A DNA stretch of 64,000 bases from an uncultured virus (IMG/VR IMGVR_UViG_3300037493_002973) (Duplodnaviria; Heunggongvirae; Uroviricota; Caudoviricetes): IMG/VR virus record IMGVR_UViG_3300037493_002973; one strand, 5' to 3'. The position numbers and the translations under genes are program-made. Below are positions 6,503-16,700 of this stretch, one piece after another. The notes below the pieces were generated by a model that searched no databases, was not told where the DNA came from, and saw nothing but the letters and a program-made list of their open reading frames with translations. How positions within the stretch are numbered: the first letter of the stretch is position 1; the number at the start of each line of letters is the position of its first letter.

Positions 6503-7786
6503 TTAGCAGTTTTTACAGTTATTATTACAAAGGTCTTGAAGTTTTGTCAATAAGGACTTCGCCCTTTCTACCTTCCCACAACTCCATGCAGCATTTATAG
6601 CAGCAAGAGTAAGATGGGCATTTATAGATTTCTTGTTGCCTCCCTTAGAGCAAGCGCATCCTACATCGGAATCCGCTATAAGTTTGTCCGTGCAACATTG
6701 TACTGAACACAATGCAAGGGTTTGTTTGGCACATCTTCCTTGGAATACAATATTACTTCCCCCTGTACATACATTTGACTGTGCCGAAACGGACGTTATT
6801 CTGCATGTATGGGTTAATCCAGCGCCTATACCTGAAACCCAAACACATAGGTCGGTAGATGTGGTTGGGGTATAATACGCTATGACTACTCCAGTTTGAT
6901 TGGCTAGGGCAAGTTGATAAGTTACCCCTGAACCAAACTCAAGAATACCAATGGTGCAATTAGCGTTTGTGGTAATATCTATGGTGATTAAATACTGAAC
7001 CCCTATGGTAAGCGCAGAGGATTGAAAAGCTAATATCGAACCGGAAGCTCCTGGGGCCGTAAAGTCATCATACCGTAGTAAGCCGCCAGAAATTGTTCCG
7101 ACACCGTTTCCGTAATTGTTTATCGCCCAAGAAGCGCCAGATGAAAACGTAGGATTAACGAGGACTTCAGTTAACGCGCATGTCTGGCCTGATAAATAAT
7201 CCCCTGCAACAGTCCAATCGAATAACCATACCCCATCGGAGATTGCTTGCCCATCTCCCGTTCCAAGAATGTTTGCAGGGTCTATTACAAGTGAATACCC
7301 GTTAAGACTTGGCAAAACTGCCGTTCCTACGTTTTTACCCGAAGCAATTACCGTTGTAGGAGCTGCATTTCCTGCACTTCCTAAATTGGTTGCTACAATA
7401 GAAGATGCTGTTACAGTTACTGCTCTGTAATATCCCGCGCCCGCAACATAGAACGCTTGTCCCGTTGTTAGCCATGCGGTGTAATACGGAGATGAACTTG
7501 AAACGGAAATCGTTACATTAGAACCTACTGCGGGAACCGTAAAAGATGCCGTTGTAATTGTAAGGTTAAGTAACGAGTAAGGGCCGTAAACCGTTCCTGA
7601 CGGGGCTGTAATAGTAAGCCCTGACGAAAGTACTTGGTCGAGTTCGATATTATCTCCCGAACCGTCTGCTGCCCATCCATAAGGATTAAGCGTTGCATCC
7701 CAAGGACCCGTAACGTCATACAACGAGAATAACCCCGTATGGCAATCTATGCAAACCTTTAGCTTTGGTTTTACGAGAAATGACAT
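6503..7786 (-). CDS. Tail structural (hub/adaptor-like) protein with Cys-rich C-terminus
   Basis: LYDVTGPWDATLNPYGW N-terminus, internal CBM-like domain, ends LQDLCNNNCKNC. Confidence 0.6.
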   Translation of the reverse strand: MSFLVKPKLKVCIDCHTGLFSLYDVTGPWDATLNPYGWAADGSGDNIELDQVLSSGLTITAPSGTVYGPYSLLNLTITTASFTVPAVGSNVTISVSSSSPYYTAWLTTGQAFYVAGAGYYRAVTVTASSIVATNLGSAGNAAPTTVIASGKNVGTAVLPSLNGYSLVIDPANILGTGDGQAISDGVWLFDWTVAGDYLSGQTCALTEVLVNPTFSSGASWAINNYGNGVGTISGGLLRYDDFTAPGASGSILAFQSSALTIGVQYLITIDITTNANCTIGILEFGSGVTYQLALANQTGVVIAYYTPTTSTDLCVWVSGIGAGLTHTCRITSVSAQSNVCTGGSNIVFQGRCAKQTLALCSVQCCTDKLIADSDVGCACSKGGNKKSINAHLTLAAINAAWSCGKVERAKSLLTKLQDLCNNNCKNC

Positions 7787-7894
7787 TTAGTATTTCTTTT
7801 TACCTGATTTCTTTTCGGATTTCTCCATTTTCTTACTTTCCATCTTTTCGTGCATTTTCCCACTTTTATGTGAGCAAGATTTTTTGGCAGCCAT
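7787..7894 (-). CDS. Small Lys/Glu-rich peptide (35 aa)
   Basis: Hand-translated MAAKKSCSHKSGKMHEKMESKKMEKSEKKSGKKKY; its stop abuts the next ATG and a promoter box lies just upstream. Confidence 0.65.
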   Translation of the reverse strand: MAAKKSCSHKSGKMHEKMESKKMEKSEKKSGKKKY

Positions 7895-7918
7895 TTTGTG
7901 TGTGTTAAGAATGAAGCC

Positions 7919-7926
7919 CAAAGATA
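7919..7926 (-). promoter_or_regulatory. Bacteroidota-type -7 promoter box for the tail-fibre operon
   Basis: CAAAGATA on plus = TATCTTTG. Confidence 0.65.
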
Positions 7927-7929
7927 TAT

Positions 7930-8694
7930 AAAAAAAGAAACCCTTACGTAATTACTTAATGGGGTAGTGTACTGCACTACCTAGGTGGTGCACATGAAAA
8001 GAAACCCGTTGCCGACTGTGTGAATCACAATCCAAAGCAACGGGTCGGCCATTGGATACTATCCGTTAGCTGGGCTGAAATCGGTTTCCCGAAATCTTTA
8101 CTACACCTACACATGGTAGGTAAGCTAGAAAAGACCTCATTGTTGCGCTCATATTTCGATAAGCGTTTGAGGTGTATTATAAAAAGACCCGACAAAGTGC
8201 GCTTGAATCAGAGGCGTGTTGGGTTTGATTGGAGCAAAGATAAAAAAAGAAATTCGTCAAGGATAATTACAAACCTTGACGGGCGAAACTTCCCGATAGT
8301 GTGCTTTTCAGCCTACGAGATTAAAAGATGAGTCAGTTACAAATTGTAACCAACTGAAATTACAATCAGAAGAAAAAAACCCGTCAAGGATTACCACAAA
8401 CCTTGACGGGATAAGTAAACGACCCTGACTAGTACGCTGTTCTGAAGGTAAGCGTTCGGGTACTGTTGAGACAAATGTACAACACGTTCACAAAATTTGA
8501 ACACGATAAAATAGTGAACAGTCAGCCTATAAGTTGACTTTCTAACCAAAAAAGTAAGCCTATACCTTTACTTATTTATACCCGATAAGGTCAAAAAACG
8601 CATGAAATACGCTATATTCGAGAATGGTATACCCGTTAAGGTATGATTTACCATTCAAATTGAACTGTCCGATTTTTTCGTACAGTTGAAAATG
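7930..8694 (-). ncRNA. Putative small-RNA array / dense hairpin cluster
   Basis: More than ten stem-loops, several followed by U-runs on the minus strand; internal TAnnTTTG boxes at 8235-8242 and 8472-8479; two repeated hairpin families. Confidence 0.6.
8255..8410 (-). terminator. Two copies of a terminator-like hairpin CGTCAAGG-N11-CCTTGACG
   Basis: Copies at 8255-8281 and 8380-8410, each preceded by an A-run on plus (U-tail on minus). Confidence 0.7.
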
Positions 8695-8889
8695 TTAATC
8701 TTTAGCAAACCCATCACTTGAGAATATAGGGCTACCATCTTTATCTAATGGAGGAAAATGTCTTAGACACCTTCGCAATCGCTCATTTAATTCCTTTACG
8801 GTTTTTGGCCTTGTGTTTGGTCTAAGTAAATCAAGTAGAAAATCACGGGTCATCAACAAAGATGCTTCTTGCTCATAGCGCAAACTCAT
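8695..8889 (-). CDS. Hypothetical protein
   Basis: 64 aa with RCLRHFP motif; abuts the phosphoesterase gene. Confidence 0.65.
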   Translation of the reverse strand: MSLRYEQEASLLMTRDFLLDLLRPNTRPKTVKELNERLRRCLRHFPPLDKDGSPIFSSDGFAKD

Positions 8890-8890
8890 G

Positions 8891-9910
8891 TTACCTTACT
8901 TTACCCTTTATTATTGTGTGATTATGAACAGTAAATTGTCCGTCAGATTCTTTCTCTACGTAGGAAAAACCCAAATTCCATTTATTTATGGGCATATAGG
9001 ACGGGTGAAGTTCGGAAAGGCAGCCCTGAGACCATGTATTCACAACATCTCCATTTAAGGAAGGTTCTGCGTGGCTACTTGTTTGGTGATGGTGCCCTAT
9101 AATGCAATTTTCTTTTGCTCTCATAAAAAGACCTCTTGCGGGGTTTACTGGGCTAAAAACAGAACGTCCAAATTCATGTCCGTGCATGATATTTAATCTT
9201 CCGAAGTGAACTATTCTCATGTCGTCAATAAGTTCTACTCCAAGTTCCCCAAACTTCAAAAGGACATCCATTCTGAACTCTGAAACGTCAAGAAGCTCGG
9301 GAGCTTTTATGCGCAAGTATCTTTCATATCTTTCTTCATGGTTACCTAATTTGTAGTAAATAGGCACTCCATCGAACTCTTTTCGGAGTATTTTAAGGAA
9401 CTGCCGACCCATTTCAAGTTCCTCGCTAAATCTTCTTTTTCGTGGGTCTTTTTCAAATGAACTCAAACCGTAGAAATCAAGAATGTCCCCATTTAGCATT
9501 ATTCCATTGATATTCCTTTCCTTACCGTATTGTAGGGCTAACGTAACGGCTTCAATATTGTGATATGGTATATGAACATCTGAAAGGATTAAAAGTCGTG
9601 TAACAGATGCTGGAATATCGTATGGCAACCACTCAGTCTCATCTGTCTCGGGAAGAAAAAACGGATTGGGTATTCCCATTGCGTTAGCAAAACTTCCTGC
9701 TTGTGGTTTTTCAGTCATTTGTATTTTTTTTCTATTGTTTTTTCCTGCCTGTCCTCGATAATATCGAACAGCAGATCTTGCACTATCAATAGTATTATAG
9801 ATTTCAGGGTGGTCAACAAACAGTTTCTTTGCAAGTGTTTGGCTTGGTAAATTGGGGTATTTTTCCAATGCCTCTAGCGTAACTGTACCTATTATAGTTA
9901 TAACACGCAT
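8891..9910 (-). CDS. Calcineurin-like metallophosphoesterase with N-terminal HTH-like extension
   Basis: All five motifs present: SDVH, GDILD, GNHE, HGH, GHHH. Confidence 0.9.
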   Translation of the reverse strand: MRVITIIGTVTLEALEKYPNLPSQTLAKKLFVDHPEIYNTIDSARSAVRYYRGQAGKNNRKKIQMTEKPQAGSFANAMGIPNPFFLPETDETEWLPYDIPASVTRLLILSDVHIPYHNIEAVTLALQYGKERNINGIMLNGDILDFYGLSSFEKDPRKRRFSEELEMGRQFLKILRKEFDGVPIYYKLGNHEERYERYLRIKAPELLDVSEFRMDVLLKFGELGVELIDDMRIVHFGRLNIMHGHEFGRSVFSPVNPARGLFMRAKENCIIGHHHQTSSHAEPSLNGDVVNTWSQGCLSELHPSYMPINKWNLGFSYVEKESDGQFTVHNHTIIKGKVR

Positions 9911-13700: not shown

Positions 13701-16700
13701 GATTTTATGAATAGGTAATCTTTTTTGTACGCTTCTGAAACAGGTTCTAACATAGATTGGCGCTCATACTCAAACTCATTAAGAGCCTCGTCTTTTGCTT
13801 CGCTTCTTGATATTTGCCTGGCTTCATTTGCTAATACCATTTTATCGGACAATGGTTCTTGGGCTTTGCTTTTTTGTTCTCGGTATATCTCCGCGTACTT
13901 ATTTACTAACGGAATGTTCTTTGCCTTATTATATGGTCCCGCAGAAATTCCTTCAAGAAAATCAAGATATTCTGATAATTCATCAATAGACAAATCCTCA
14001 ACATTAACCTTTAATGCTTGGCGCATCGACCCATCATCTATTCCGTAGTCGTTTCTATTTAGGCGCTTTGTATTGTCCTTCTTTAATTTATTCGCTCTCG
14101 ATACGTTGTCTGCATAAGTAGCATCCTCGAGAACCTTACCCATGTACTCTACCGCTTTTGCGTAAGAGTTTTCGTTGAATGGATTTACAGATAAGAGTTT
14201 TTTTGTTATTGCCGCAAGTTGTCTTGGTGCAATTGAAAATCCAGGATTAGATTCCTTTGCTTCCGCAATCATGTCCTCCAAAATGGTATTCACTTGTTGT
14301 GTAAACCATTTCTGCATTTGCGCGGCTTCTTTTATGCCCTTTGCTTTACCCGCAATTTGCCCCTCAAGGTTTCCAAACGCTTCTCCTATACGAGCGCCTA
14401 TGTTGACATACTTCTGTTTGGCTTTCTCGATAGCCTTTTCAACGGCTTTCTCTTTAGATTCCTTTGCGGCTTCCCTTGCTTTAGCGGCTTTTTCGGAGGC
14501 TTCTTTTTTGGCTTTCTCTAATCTCGCTGCGGCTTTCTCGCGTTCTTCTTTCTTAGCTTTTGCAAGGTCTTCTTTAGAGGTTTGTTTAGGAGCTTCTTTT
14601 TTGGGAATACCCTCGGAGATTGAATTGAAGATGTATGAAGCGATGTACTGACTTACATTCACTCCTTCTTTATCTTTTAGGTATCTAAGCAATCCTTTTG
14701 AACTAGGTTCTAATTTGGAATTTTCTGCGTAGGTCTTTGCAATGGATTTCAAGTCCTCGAACAACTCAGGGTCTTTCATTAAAGCGTGTACGTCTTTTAC
14801 CGATTCTTCAAATATGCCCTTATTCCATTTCGCTCCTTGCATTGCCTTGTCGATGTACTCAACGGCTTTCTGTATAGCTTTTCCTATCTCAGTTCCGTTC
14901 TGAACTTCTTTAGCGGCTATATCGAGGGCTGCGTTGTAAATTTTTACGCTTATCCCTATAAGACCAAGAGTGGGGTCGAAGAAGGTTAATCCCTTCACTT
15001 TCATGTCAAGAATAGCCTTAGCTAAAATCTCGTTCTTACTTCCGAATAGAGGTAAGCCAGTTTTCACGGCTTGTTTTATTTCGGGGGTTATGTCGATGGA
15101 GTGTTGGGTGGTGGCATTTGAATTAATAAAATTATCAAGTTCTTTTTCTGATATTTTACCTTCTCTATACTTTTGTGCCATTTCTTTTGTACCAACAGGT
15201 GTTCCACTTCCTATTTCCACAGTCTTTGGCTGTTGCCCCGTCAAGGATTCCACTACGTTACCTACTATACCTAAACTCCCTTCACTTGGACTTCCGTAGA
15301 AGCCTTTCATTCCTTTGCCGCCTACCTTAAGATTTTCTCCTGTTAGAGACATATCTTCTTCTATCCTTTCTCCTTTTCCATCAATAATTCTTTGCGCCAC
15401 ATCTTTACCAAGTGTTTCCTCTAATTTATCCTCTTTTAAGGATTTGTTTTCAGAAACATTTTCGCCTCTTTTGTAAGCAACAATTCTATATGTTCCATCG
15501 CTATTCTTTCTGTATTTAATTTCATCTGCTATTTTTTCTAACGAATACCTCTCATTCTGCTGCTCTCCTGTTGTCCAAGCAATCTTGTCAACGCCTTGCG
15601 CTACAGCTTCTTTTAAGGCAACCTTTACTCCGAGTTTTACCCAAGAGTTTGTGTCGGTTACGAATGGGGCGGAGGGGATTGTTCCGTCTTTGAACTCTCC
15701 GAATATAGGGTCCCATCCTTGCACGGAATTTCTTGCTTCAATAAGCCTGTCGATTTTGGCGGACTCTGCATCAGTTATCTTAGCGCTTAAATCATTCCCG
15801 TACTTGTCTTTTAGTGAATTATAGAAGTCGGAAACAGCCCTATTAGCTGCCTCAGCCTTTTTCTTTAACTCAGGACTCTTAAACCCTTCCTTCTTCCCCT
15901 TCTGTCCCCAGTCAGATTGCACCTCTTCGAGAAACAATACTTTATTTCCATCAGAATCCTTTCGGGTGTTCATTCTTAAATGAACCAATCTTCTATTATC
16001 AGGTAAATCTTGGCCATATTGATGCGCTTGTGGAACTTTATAATCACCCACCTTTGCCATACTGCCTGTGCGTGGCAATATTACTATTACCTCCTTGTAG
16101 TTCTCTTTTTCTCCTTCTAGTTGGTATTGGGAGAATTTAGTAGGATTAGATATTCCACCTTCCCCTTCAGCACTTAACTCTAATTCTTCAAGCCTTGCTA
16201 TTGCTTGATGGTTTTCATCCCAGTATTTTTTAGCAAGTATTTTATCCCCGCGTCTTTGCGCTAACTGTGCCTTTTTTTCTGTTTCCTTTTGCAGATTTAT
16301 CAGGTCATCTGAAGAACTCTCGTCTCTTTTATTGAGTAGCGTTAGAAACTCGCTATAAGACCCATCTTCAATATCTTCTATTGCTCCTCCTGGATTTTTT
16401 GCATCAAGTTTGGTAAGGTATTCTAATCTCTTCAGTTGCTCATCGTTTAGTATGTCGCTACCTGTTGCTACTCCCTTCATCACCTCAACGACATCCACGC
16501 GGTTATCCTTCAAGAAGTTCAAAAGCTCCCTCTTAGAAACTCTATCTTTTGGGTTCTTTGCTTCAAGCACCCCGCGCAAGCCCGTCCAAAGGTCTTCCCC
16601 TTCTTTGCTCCTTACTTTATCCAACCATTCTTTTGCAGTAAGGGAATCTGCTTTAGTATCCTTTATAGATTTCTCAAGAGGGCTATACCATCCGTTTACT

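Follow-up and report, generated by a model that had tools for sequence, protein, structure and literature searches.

What function might be served by three small hairpins lying in a gap between the genes of an uncultured phage? The hairpins are found at 8133-8173 (copy 1), 8186-8224 (copy 2) and 8421-8461 (copy 3) of a stretch of 64,000 nucleotides from the IMG/VR virus record IMGVR_UViG_3300037493_002973, the whole of which is called the window here. The window is phage DNA with almost all of its long open reading frames (ORFs) on the minus strand; one ORF is of 3976 aa and one contains the crAss-virus muzzle domain PF25731 (E 1.6e-17), and the phage is crAss-like. The stretch or parts of it are present in freshwater and sediment metagenomes. 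A sequence-only reading had described the hairpins as three diverged copies of one motif, a scaffold recognised by one protein and carrying guide-like or decoy-like segments. The sequences and folds of the three bulged hairpins were confirmed at these positions. The comparisons below indicate that in copies 2 and 3 the phage carries homologs of AbiFr, which is the RNA antitoxin to the abortive-infection toxin AbiF, with each copy homologous to a different AbiFr class, and we consider it reasonably probable that they act as orphan antitoxin RNA decoys against AbiF abortive infection in the host.

A first match for copy 2 came from a permissive Rfam scan of 7700-8900. The minus strand of copy 2 (8223-8187) aligned with the full length (1-37) of RF03085, the abiF RNA, at 24.8 bits and E 0.087, its best Rfam match; copies 1 and 3 gave no RF03085 match at E <= 10. 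The abiF RNA, also known as AbiFr or RCd22, is the RNA antitoxin in AbiF's toxin-antitoxin (TA) system, which is of type III, AbiF being a HEPN protein of the Abi_2 family, and copy 2 has the same fold: a 6-bp outer stem, a 1-nt 5' bulge, a 3-bp inner stem, an 11-nt loop and a 6-nt 3' bulge, with one non-canonical pair in the alignment. The RF03085 plan is also present in copies 1 and 3, with 6-nt or 12-nt loops. The score of 24.8 bits is below the RF03085 gathering score of 37. Orthologs of copy 2 in related viral contigs score 27.1-32.7 bits, bacterial AbiF-linked RNAs of the copy 2 subclass score 28.1 (L322), 29.9 (L340) and 30.5 bits (L323; L-numbers are our labels for loci), and another bacterial AbiF-linked subclass passes the threshold at 41.9-43.4 bits. 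The missed threshold is therefore uninformative for copy 2, as the bacterial AbiF-linked RNAs of its own subclass fail it too.

A class-A pattern was made from the positions common to copy 2 and the Rfam consensus and was scanned against one genome per prokaryote species. At least 121 loci were found, mostly in Bacteroidota among the matches listed. Again among the matches listed, at least five of the six outer-stem pairs are formed in 123 of 127 class-A instances in genomes, an ORF of at least 230 aa starts at -40 to +200 nt in 40 of the 68 instances with enough flank, and 14 of the 18 adjacent ORFs tested are Abi_2 proteins. The 25-nt core of copy 2 (5' bulge, inner stem, loop and 3' bulge, reading A-CGC-loop-GCG-CACUUU-G) is identical in L094 and L322. 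The L094 RNA, from a Bacteroidetes metagenome-assembled genome (MAG), is separated by 17 nt from the Abi_2 gene that follows it (298 aa, E 1.1e-58), and its outer stem differs from that of copy 2 yet is compensated. Close variants of copy 2 are found in Kaistella jeonii (L120) and a Sphingobacteriaceae MAG (L142). Phage and bacterial loci of the copy 2 type align without gaps over 75 columns (alignment A5; L340, L323, L324), and within the alignment are a leader CAAnCAAA and, 10 nt ahead of the hairpin, a TAnnTTTG box. A covariance model, R2, was built from 17 AbiF-linked RNAs and run on both strands of the window with filters off; copy 2 was the top match at 49.4 bits (E 2e-11), a score that is not fully independent given that the training set was partly chosen with the copy 2-derived pattern. 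By eye, copy 2 keeps all 17 columns that are invariant in the 17 RNAs. As far as sequence can tell, copy 2 is a class-A member of the abiF RNA family.

Copy 3 belongs elsewhere. The upstream regions of 31 Abi_2 loci were read, 30 of them from a search of 401 Bacteroidia genomes together with L323, and were found to contain at least three classes of hairpin, namely class A (the Rfam type), a class B and a third class without a 3' bulge. Class B stands upstream of 16 of the 31 loci and is characterised by an inner stem CGCU/AGCG, a UUCCCAUCAGAAC-type loop and a CACCAG-type bulge. In 11 bacterial class-B sequences 99.1% of the cells are paired and four pairs are changed on both sides, and none of 500 shuffles reached as high a covariation score. 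A model, R1, made exclusively from these 11 bacterial AbiF-upstream RNAs was run over the whole window on both strands with filters off. Its top match was copy 3 with 31.3 bits (E 2.8e-7), followed by copy 2 (E 0.07). Copy 3 folds with an outer stem ACCCGA/UCAGGGU containing one bulged A, an inner stem CGCU/AGCG, a 12-nt loop and a 3' bulge UACUAG. Its leader AACAGUA, its TAnnTTTG box and the hairpin itself align with five bacterial AbiF loci at the same spacing (alignment A6); taken together, the leaders and TAnnTTTG boxes of copies 2 and 3 can be aligned to bacterial loci entirely or almost without gaps. Seven loci of classes B, B2 and C (the last two are described below) were compared with Rfam 15 and matched no family at E <= 1. 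Copy 3 is, on this evidence, to be assigned to a second AbiF-linked RNA class outside Rfam. The RNA classes cluster with the clades of the AbiF proteins: the tree has 9 label changes, where shuffling gives 14.6 on average and none of 200 shuffles gives so few. This is a measure of clustering and not of co-evolution because related sequences share labels.

The Bacteroidia Abi_2 loci also show further diversity. Besides class A, at least three classes of hairpin, namely B, B2 (bulge CGCUCA) and C (without a 3' bulge), stand before Abi_2 genes in L326, L329, L337, L341, L348 and others. The AbiF locus of one Sphingobacteriaceae MAG is adjoined by a group II intron domain, RF01999 (L323 2344-2464, 82.8 bits).

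Copy 1 has a 3' bulge CAACAA, which like that of the abiF RNA starts with CA, a 7-bp inner stem and a 6-nt loop, and by eye its 5' leader resembles one subgroup of class A (L335, L338). It lies inside an insertion of ~137 nt (8045-8181) that is absent from the relatives. The joint of 8044 to 8182 occurs in sequencing run X20, which has no cover over 8054-8157, as fits a relative without the copy 1 insertion. A contig of run X2 (DNA) covers copy 1 with no listed differences, leaving no covariation to judge. The 31 viral loci returned by a scan with a copy 1 pattern were all unrelated sequence, and of two metagenome scans one gave 0 matches and the other 19 chance matches without a closing stem. 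Copy 1 shares the architecture only, and its membership of the family is an unverified supposition.

On which strand do the hairpins act? Whichever strand is folded, each copy forms two stems, the outer one and an inner one of CGCU/RGCG, with an asymmetric internal loop between them. The plan common to the minus strands consists of an outer stem of 6-7 bp, a 5' bulge of 1-2 nt, an inner stem of 3-4 bp (7 bp in copy 1), a loop of 6-12 nt, a 3' bulge of 6 nt and a U run. The minus strand of copy 1 has a minimum free energy of -12.2 kcal/mol (z -3.33), above chance, and for copy 2 it is the plus strand that gives the more stable fold (-15.6 kcal/mol, z -3.1), by virtue of G-U pairs. Folding energy is thus not decisive and the case for the hairpins rests on comparison. 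In the whole 64 kb the top R1 placements of copies 3, 2 and 1 are all on the minus strand. Copies 2 and 3 act on the minus strand, and the question of strand, which the sequence-only reading had left open, is settled.

The same comparisons change the picture of constant stems with variable loops, which turns out to be reversed: the outer stems differ from relative to relative, with the compensatory changes that had been suspected, and the loops and bulges are what each class conserves. The three copies in the window look as if they had constant stems and variable loops because they are members of different classes. Their shared architecture is real, but they are not one local repeat; they represent two bacterial RNA classes and a singleton. 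A scaffold recognised by a protein is a good description, as copies 2 and 3 are homologous to RNAs that precede bacterial AbiF (Abi_2) genes. The covariance searches found many further instances, and the relatives keep their stems by covariation rather than conserving the loops alone. What does not survive is the notion of guide-like, variable specificity segments. Cas13 is regarded as a descendant of AbiF, whose RNA is seen as a forerunner of the CRISPR RNA (crRNA) (PMC12737573; here and below, such papers are cited for the portions available), which lends some appeal to the idea that the hairpins are guides for an RNA-guided nuclease with the loops as specificity segments. This is nevertheless highly improbable, for within a class bacteria and phages share conserved loops and bulges, which track the AbiF clades and are not spacer-like, and there is neither a repeat-spacer array nor a nuclease gene nearby.

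Relatives of the locus were fetched via the neighbouring Metallophos gene (428 confirmed, 80 kept). Orthologs of copy 3 were present in 12 and those of copy 2 in 9 of the 80 related viral loci, in every case on the gene strand and only in the closest relatives. An inner-stem pair of copy 3 changes from U-A to A-U in L011, L013 and L044. The outer stem of copy 2, CCCAAC/GUCGGG, becomes CCUGGC/GUCGGG in L001 and CCCGAC/GUCGGG in L011, and its inner stem CGC/GCG becomes UGC/GCA in L002 and L020. Beyond the relatives, pattern scans of viral contigs returned at least 120 class-A and at least 117 class-B loci. For class B, 61 of the at least 117 loci were fitted to the model together with the window and nine relatives. 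Among the matches listed, this gave 69 distinct phage-borne hairpins with 97.4% of cells paired, and 8 of the 11 pairs change on both sides, with 159 such cells against 40 in shuffles; control alignments slid along the sequence were 19-44% paired.

These data bear on the possibility that the hairpins are plain intrinsic terminators, or non-functional scraps of a host AbiF locus gained by recombination. Each consists of a hairpin and a U run, lies on the gene strand and has many terminators around it in the gap, and the folding energy of copies 2 and 3 does not rise above that of shuffled sequences, all of which would suit such an origin. Against this, the promoter box, the loop and the bulge are kept in 9 to 12 related phage loci in which the stems change in a compensatory way, and hairpins of this kind occur with strong covariation at >230 viral loci (among the matches listed). 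Moreover, the two adjacent classes each have a promoter box to themselves, and the stems are weak and bulged, unlike those of the neighbouring terminators. We regard this explanation as decidedly improbable and retain the antitoxin-like RNAs as the better description.

The closest carriers of the Metallophos gene together with the RNA block (L005, L011 and L020) are complete phages of 34-40 kb with terminal repeats. The Metallophos/RNA module appears to be shared between unlike phages, these of 34-40 kb and the crAss-like phage.

An abiF RNA that exceeds the Rfam threshold (44.4 bits; 55.1 bits with R2) is present in a phage in culture, the T7-like Aeromonas phage vB_AhaP_PT2. It is situated at L511 1502-1544 (OM716005.1, about 15320-15362), where a gap separates the connector gene from the scaffold gene, and Abi_2 was not found in the 41-kb genome. 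The sequence before this RNA resembles, by eye, a T7-type phage promoter. The loop of the RNA is of the proteobacterial type; the loops in the window are of the Bacteroidota type and come with Bacteroidota-type promoter boxes. From their sequences the phage RNA variants look host-matched.

If the phage RNAs are AbiF antitoxins, is there an AbiF for them to control? Copies 2 and 3 do not stand immediately upstream of an abiF (Abi_2) gene in the window. No Abi_2 domain was found by Pfam in 50 window ORFs, PADLOC gave no match with 11 window ORFs, and tblastn of 31 AbiF proteins against the window gave at best E 0.06 over 17 residues. The same tblastn search of the 80 related loci gave 0 matches at E <= 0.01. 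Comparison with the AbiF profile by hhalign gave probabilities of 0.2% for the 427-aa neighbour and 0.1% for a 315-aa neighbour. Abi_2 was found in 0 of 24 downstream ORFs of the relatives. The whole records of five hairpin-bearing relatives, three of which are complete genomes that have terminal repeats, gave no match to PF07751, and neither did five further whole records, of which one has a hairpin. No relatives of the 427-aa neighbour were found in viral contigs.

The same separation was seen on a larger scale when a hidden Markov model of the 31 AbiF proteins was compared with six-frame translations. An AbiF-like frame lies just downstream of class A at 41 of 68 places in genomes, as against 1 of 70 in viral contigs (both among the matches listed). 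For class B the figures are 6 of 10 places in 151 Bacteroidia genomes (R1 matches) and 4 of 74 in viral contigs (among the matches listed). Thus 139 of 144 viral hairpins have no adjacent AbiF and 5 of 144 do, again among the matches listed. The genes that do follow the viral hairpins are heterogeneous, the largest cluster, that of a 322-aa protein, accounting for 11 of 96 (among the matches listed) and the others including Endonuclease VII, ThyX and unidentified proteins.

It might be argued that the hairpins are the antitoxin half of a TA system belonging to the phage itself, with a toxin too diverged or too distant to recognise. Prophages can carry AbiF systems (PMC12373285), AbiF does lie beside the hairpin in a few viral loci (L267, L415, L418, L454) and the window is only part of the phage genome. 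Set against this, Pfam, PADLOC, tblastn and profile comparison all failed to find Abi_2 in the window, the three complete hairpin-bearing relatives have none, and the conserved 322-aa neighbour of the hairpin in 11 viral loci is unrelated to AbiF. We think such a system quite improbable. The phage hairpins resemble a host antitoxin RNA and no toxin gene was found in the window or in the three complete relatives, which are the features expected of a phage-encoded antitoxin mimic.

The 322-aa protein just mentioned has no Pfam match and is encoded ~150 nt downstream of class-B hairpins in L387, L430, L433, L440, L443, L446 and five more loci. It was considered as a hidden AbiF and rejected at an hhalign probability of 1.5% against the AbiF profile. 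Two bacterial class-B hairpins with promoter boxes (L514 1501-1545 and L517 1501-1545) also have no AbiF downstream, and one of the two precedes a 458-aa AAA-ATPase-like ORF; these hairpins may be prophage-borne or part of other systems.

The arrangement of the locus on the minus strand is consistent with dedicated RNA genes. The gap of ~900 nt without credible ORFs is bordered upstream by the Metallophos gene (8891-9910) and downstream by a lysine-rich ORF of 35 aa (7894-7787), whose stop abuts the ATG of the 427-aa ORF (7786-6503), all on the minus strand. Read on that strand, the gap is a chain of hairpins with a U run after each. The boxes that had been noticed about 11 nt from two of the hairpins are indeed there, TACATTTG, of the TAnnTTTG type, at 8479-8472 before copy 3 and the -7 box TATCTTTG at 8242-8235 before copy 2, each separated from its hairpin by 10 nt. 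We take TAnnTTTG to be the Bacteroidota -7 promoter consensus. Copy 3 (8421-8461), the class-B AbiF-antitoxin-like hairpin matched by R1, is followed by terminator T1 at about 8370-8410 (CCCGUCAAGG...CCUUGACGGG and then a U run), which is both an inverted and a direct repeat. Terminator T2 (8243-8283) is a direct repeat of T1 with 83% identity. After the box at 8235-8242 come copy 2 (8186-8224), the abiF-family hairpin matched by RF03085 and R2, and copy 1 (8133-8173), related by fold only; each has a U run after it, and terminator T3 (7998-8045) closes the copy 2/copy 1 transcription unit. A T3-type hairpin directly follows copy 2 in L002 and L020. A third TATCTTTG box (7919-7926) precedes the 35-aa ORF and the genes downstream of it. 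The gap from 7.9 to 8.5 kb would thus comprise two small minus-strand RNA genes, one consisting of promoter, copy 3 and terminator and the other of promoter, copy 2, copy 1 and terminator. Throughout this part of the window the phage seems to rely on host-type Bacteroidota promoters. Generic searches had little to say about the locus: Rfam at gathering thresholds and a tRNA scan gave no match over the window, and a scan for sigma-70 promoters and terminators gave background levels (4 against 3.6 expected and 3 against 1.5 expected).

This layout could also be read as a set of cis-acting leaders or attenuators that control read-through into the 35-aa and 427-aa ORFs and have no role against a host AbiF. 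There is a U run after each hairpin and a gene block downstream on the same strand, and RCd22 acts in cis on abiF by premature termination (PMC12373285). The hairpins are followed by separate canonical terminators, T1 and T3, and a further TATCTTTG box (7926-7919) stands before the downstream genes, which themselves vary among the relatives and across the viral loci, as the small size of the largest cluster shows. Control in cis would also leave the match of loop and bulge to AbiF-linked RNAs unexplained. We judge it improbable, and continue with RNAs that would act in trans on a host AbiF.

Several other elements were noted in or near the gap. T2 and T1 are direct repeats 127 nt apart, and a contig of run X2 joins 8246 to 8373, a variant without 8247-8372 as expected from recombination between the T1/T2 repeats. 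At 8517-8540 and 8550-8573 (minus) there are two small hairpins with a common loop UAUAGGC and Us after each, and these are kept in L011, L013 and L044. A search of the 401 Bacteroidia genomes with the TATAGGC-loop pattern gave one-mismatch matches alone, in 21 genomes, no commoner than with a reversed-pattern control. A direct repeat of 15 nt, TATACCCGWTAAGGT, with units at 8577-8591 and 8628-8642 that are 93% identical, stands upstream of the RNA genes. Downstream of T3 a palindromic element (GUGCACCACCUAGGUAGUGCAGUACAC...) at 7961-8000 (minus) is 92% conserved in L003/L004 and occurs also in L001 and L013. It may represent a further small RNA or else a site for protein binding.

How would such RNAs serve the phage? 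AbiF-linked RNAs bind and neutralise the AbiF toxin (PMC12373285, PMC12737573). RCd22 neutralises AbiF in trans, and it is the structure of the stem that matters and not its sequence (PMC12373285); the abiF-motif RNA is described, in the portion of the literature available, as doing so by direct binding. In the structure of PbAbiF, single-stranded bulge nucleotides block the RNase site (PMC12737573). In type III systems the toxin is freed by phage-induced loss of a labile antitoxin (PMC13728456). Since loss of the antitoxin frees the toxin and the RNA neutralises AbiF, an orphan phage RNA with its own promoter is expected to keep AbiF inactive. AbiFr, a non-coding RNA, is the antitoxin of the HEPN RNase AbiF (Abi_2), to which it binds and whose active site it blocks. 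In the mechanism that we propose, a phage lacking AbiF would make the RNAs of copies 2 and 3 during infection, these would keep the host AbiF neutralised when the supply of host antitoxin RNA fails, and the phage would thereby escape abortive infection. The clustering of RNA classes with AbiF clades gives a reason to carry several classes, since more than one class would cover different AbiF clades. The decoy-like role that the sequence-only reading had offered as one option is thus the reading adopted here, supported by homology to AbiF-linked RNAs and by the papers on toxin neutralisation. That the phage RNAs are expressed, bind the AbiF of the host and benefit the phage we infer, as we do every other step from homolog to decoy.

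A number of observations weigh against the decoy reading and lower our confidence in it, among them the missed RF03085 threshold and the partial dependence of R2 described above. The hairpins are imperfect: the outer stem of copy 2 contains an A.C mismatch, the bulged A in the outer stem of copy 3 recurs in all of its orthologs, and copy 3 has a U at a bulge position that is C in 11 of the 11 bacterial sequences of the model. On the minus strand the folding energies of copy 2 (z -0.43, 59 of 200 shuffles as good) and copy 3 (z -0.60, 51 of 200) are at chance. Copy 1 is below significance with both R1 (9.9 bits, E 1.6, rank 4) and R2 (7.1 bits, E 8.4, rank 14), and no homolog of it was found in three pattern scans, one of viral contigs and two of metagenomes. 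Orphan copies are found in bacterial genomes too (27 of 68 for class A among the matches listed, 4 of 10 for class B). Contigs of one RNA run (X20) cover the copy 2/T3/copy 3 block of a relative, but contigs assembled from an RNA library are no demonstration of transcription, and they carry no transcript ends, strand or level. Finally, Abi_2 matches over the cut-off occur in only 44 of the 401 Bacteroidia genomes sampled.

RNAs of this kind occur in several lineages: crAss-like phages and phages of 34-40 kb (with Bacteroidota-type boxes), the T7-like Aeromonas phage and a cyanophage. Class B is present at >100 viral loci (among the matches listed) and at many bacterial loci. A wider proposition would be that many phage lineages carry stand-alone, promoter-equipped AbiF antitoxin RNAs as a general RNA-only counter-defence, that the present phage stacks two or three classes against several AbiF clades, and that class B is a large uncatalogued AbiF-linked family; we regard the chances of this as evenly balanced. 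AbiF is a widespread abortive-infection toxin, a proposed Cas13 ancestor, and the ways by which phages get past it are barely known. If the hairpins are decoys, then they are a natural protein-free anti-defence present on >230 viral contigs (among the matches listed), they extend antitoxin mimicry from a single laboratory example, pseudo-ToxI, to a second toxin family, and they provide a simple sequence marker to predict which phages are able to infect AbiF-carrying hosts. Class B widens the known repertoire of AbiF RNAs and offers matched RNA-protein pairs for studying the evolution of specificity toward crRNA. No proposal of phage-borne AbiFr homologs as anti-AbiF decoys and no description of class B were found in the literature, and Zilberzwige-Tal et al. 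(Cell 2025) may bear on the novelty of both; an overview of phage countermeasures of November 2026 does not mention AbiF in the portion available.

The known system closest in sequence is the abiF RNA itself. Copy 2 has the RF03085 loop motif GCCUCU and the same CA at the start of the bulge, and the tandem of copy 2 and copy 1 before a terminator recalls the two abiF motifs of RCd22, as far as the available account of RCd22 goes. Unlike RF03085 and RCd22, copy 2 has no abiF gene downstream or elsewhere in the window, scores below the gathering threshold and resides in a crAss-like phage of lytic type, and the class of copy 3 has no Rfam family at E <= 1. An abiF-family RNA in a phage genome is also known from the lytic cyanophage S-CREM1, where the abiF small RNA (sRNA) was annotated with its function left open and with three more phage genomes noted in Rfam (PMC9964418); it scores 51.6 bits with RF03085. 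In its available part that account, unlike ours, draws no link to loss of the toxin or to counter-defence and has no second RNA class (PMC9964418). Protection against AbiF has also been described for lactococcal phage sk1, through a hairpin of its cos region (PMC13064643, summarising Rince 2000 and Zilberzwige-Tal 2025). This hairpin resembles the present case in being a phage nucleic-acid hairpin, reported to inhibit AbiF, but it has no resemblance to the AbiF non-coding RNA according to the available part of PMC13064643, whereas the present hairpins are homologous to that RNA.

The nearest functional parallel is the pseudo-ToxI of Pectobacterium phage PhiTE, likewise a phage RNA that resembles a host type III antitoxin and has no toxin gene; it is an RNA antitoxin mimic that allows escape from ToxIN, with suppression of abortive infection as the proposed mode (PMC3594212). 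The two cases differ in the toxin, which is ToxN for PhiTE and the HEPN protein AbiF here, and in the fold of the RNA. Escape by PhiTE reportedly arises through repeat expansion or capture. In contrast to pseudo-ToxI, the copies described here are native to their phage, have promoters of their own, fall into more than one class and are widespread among phages that are uncultured.

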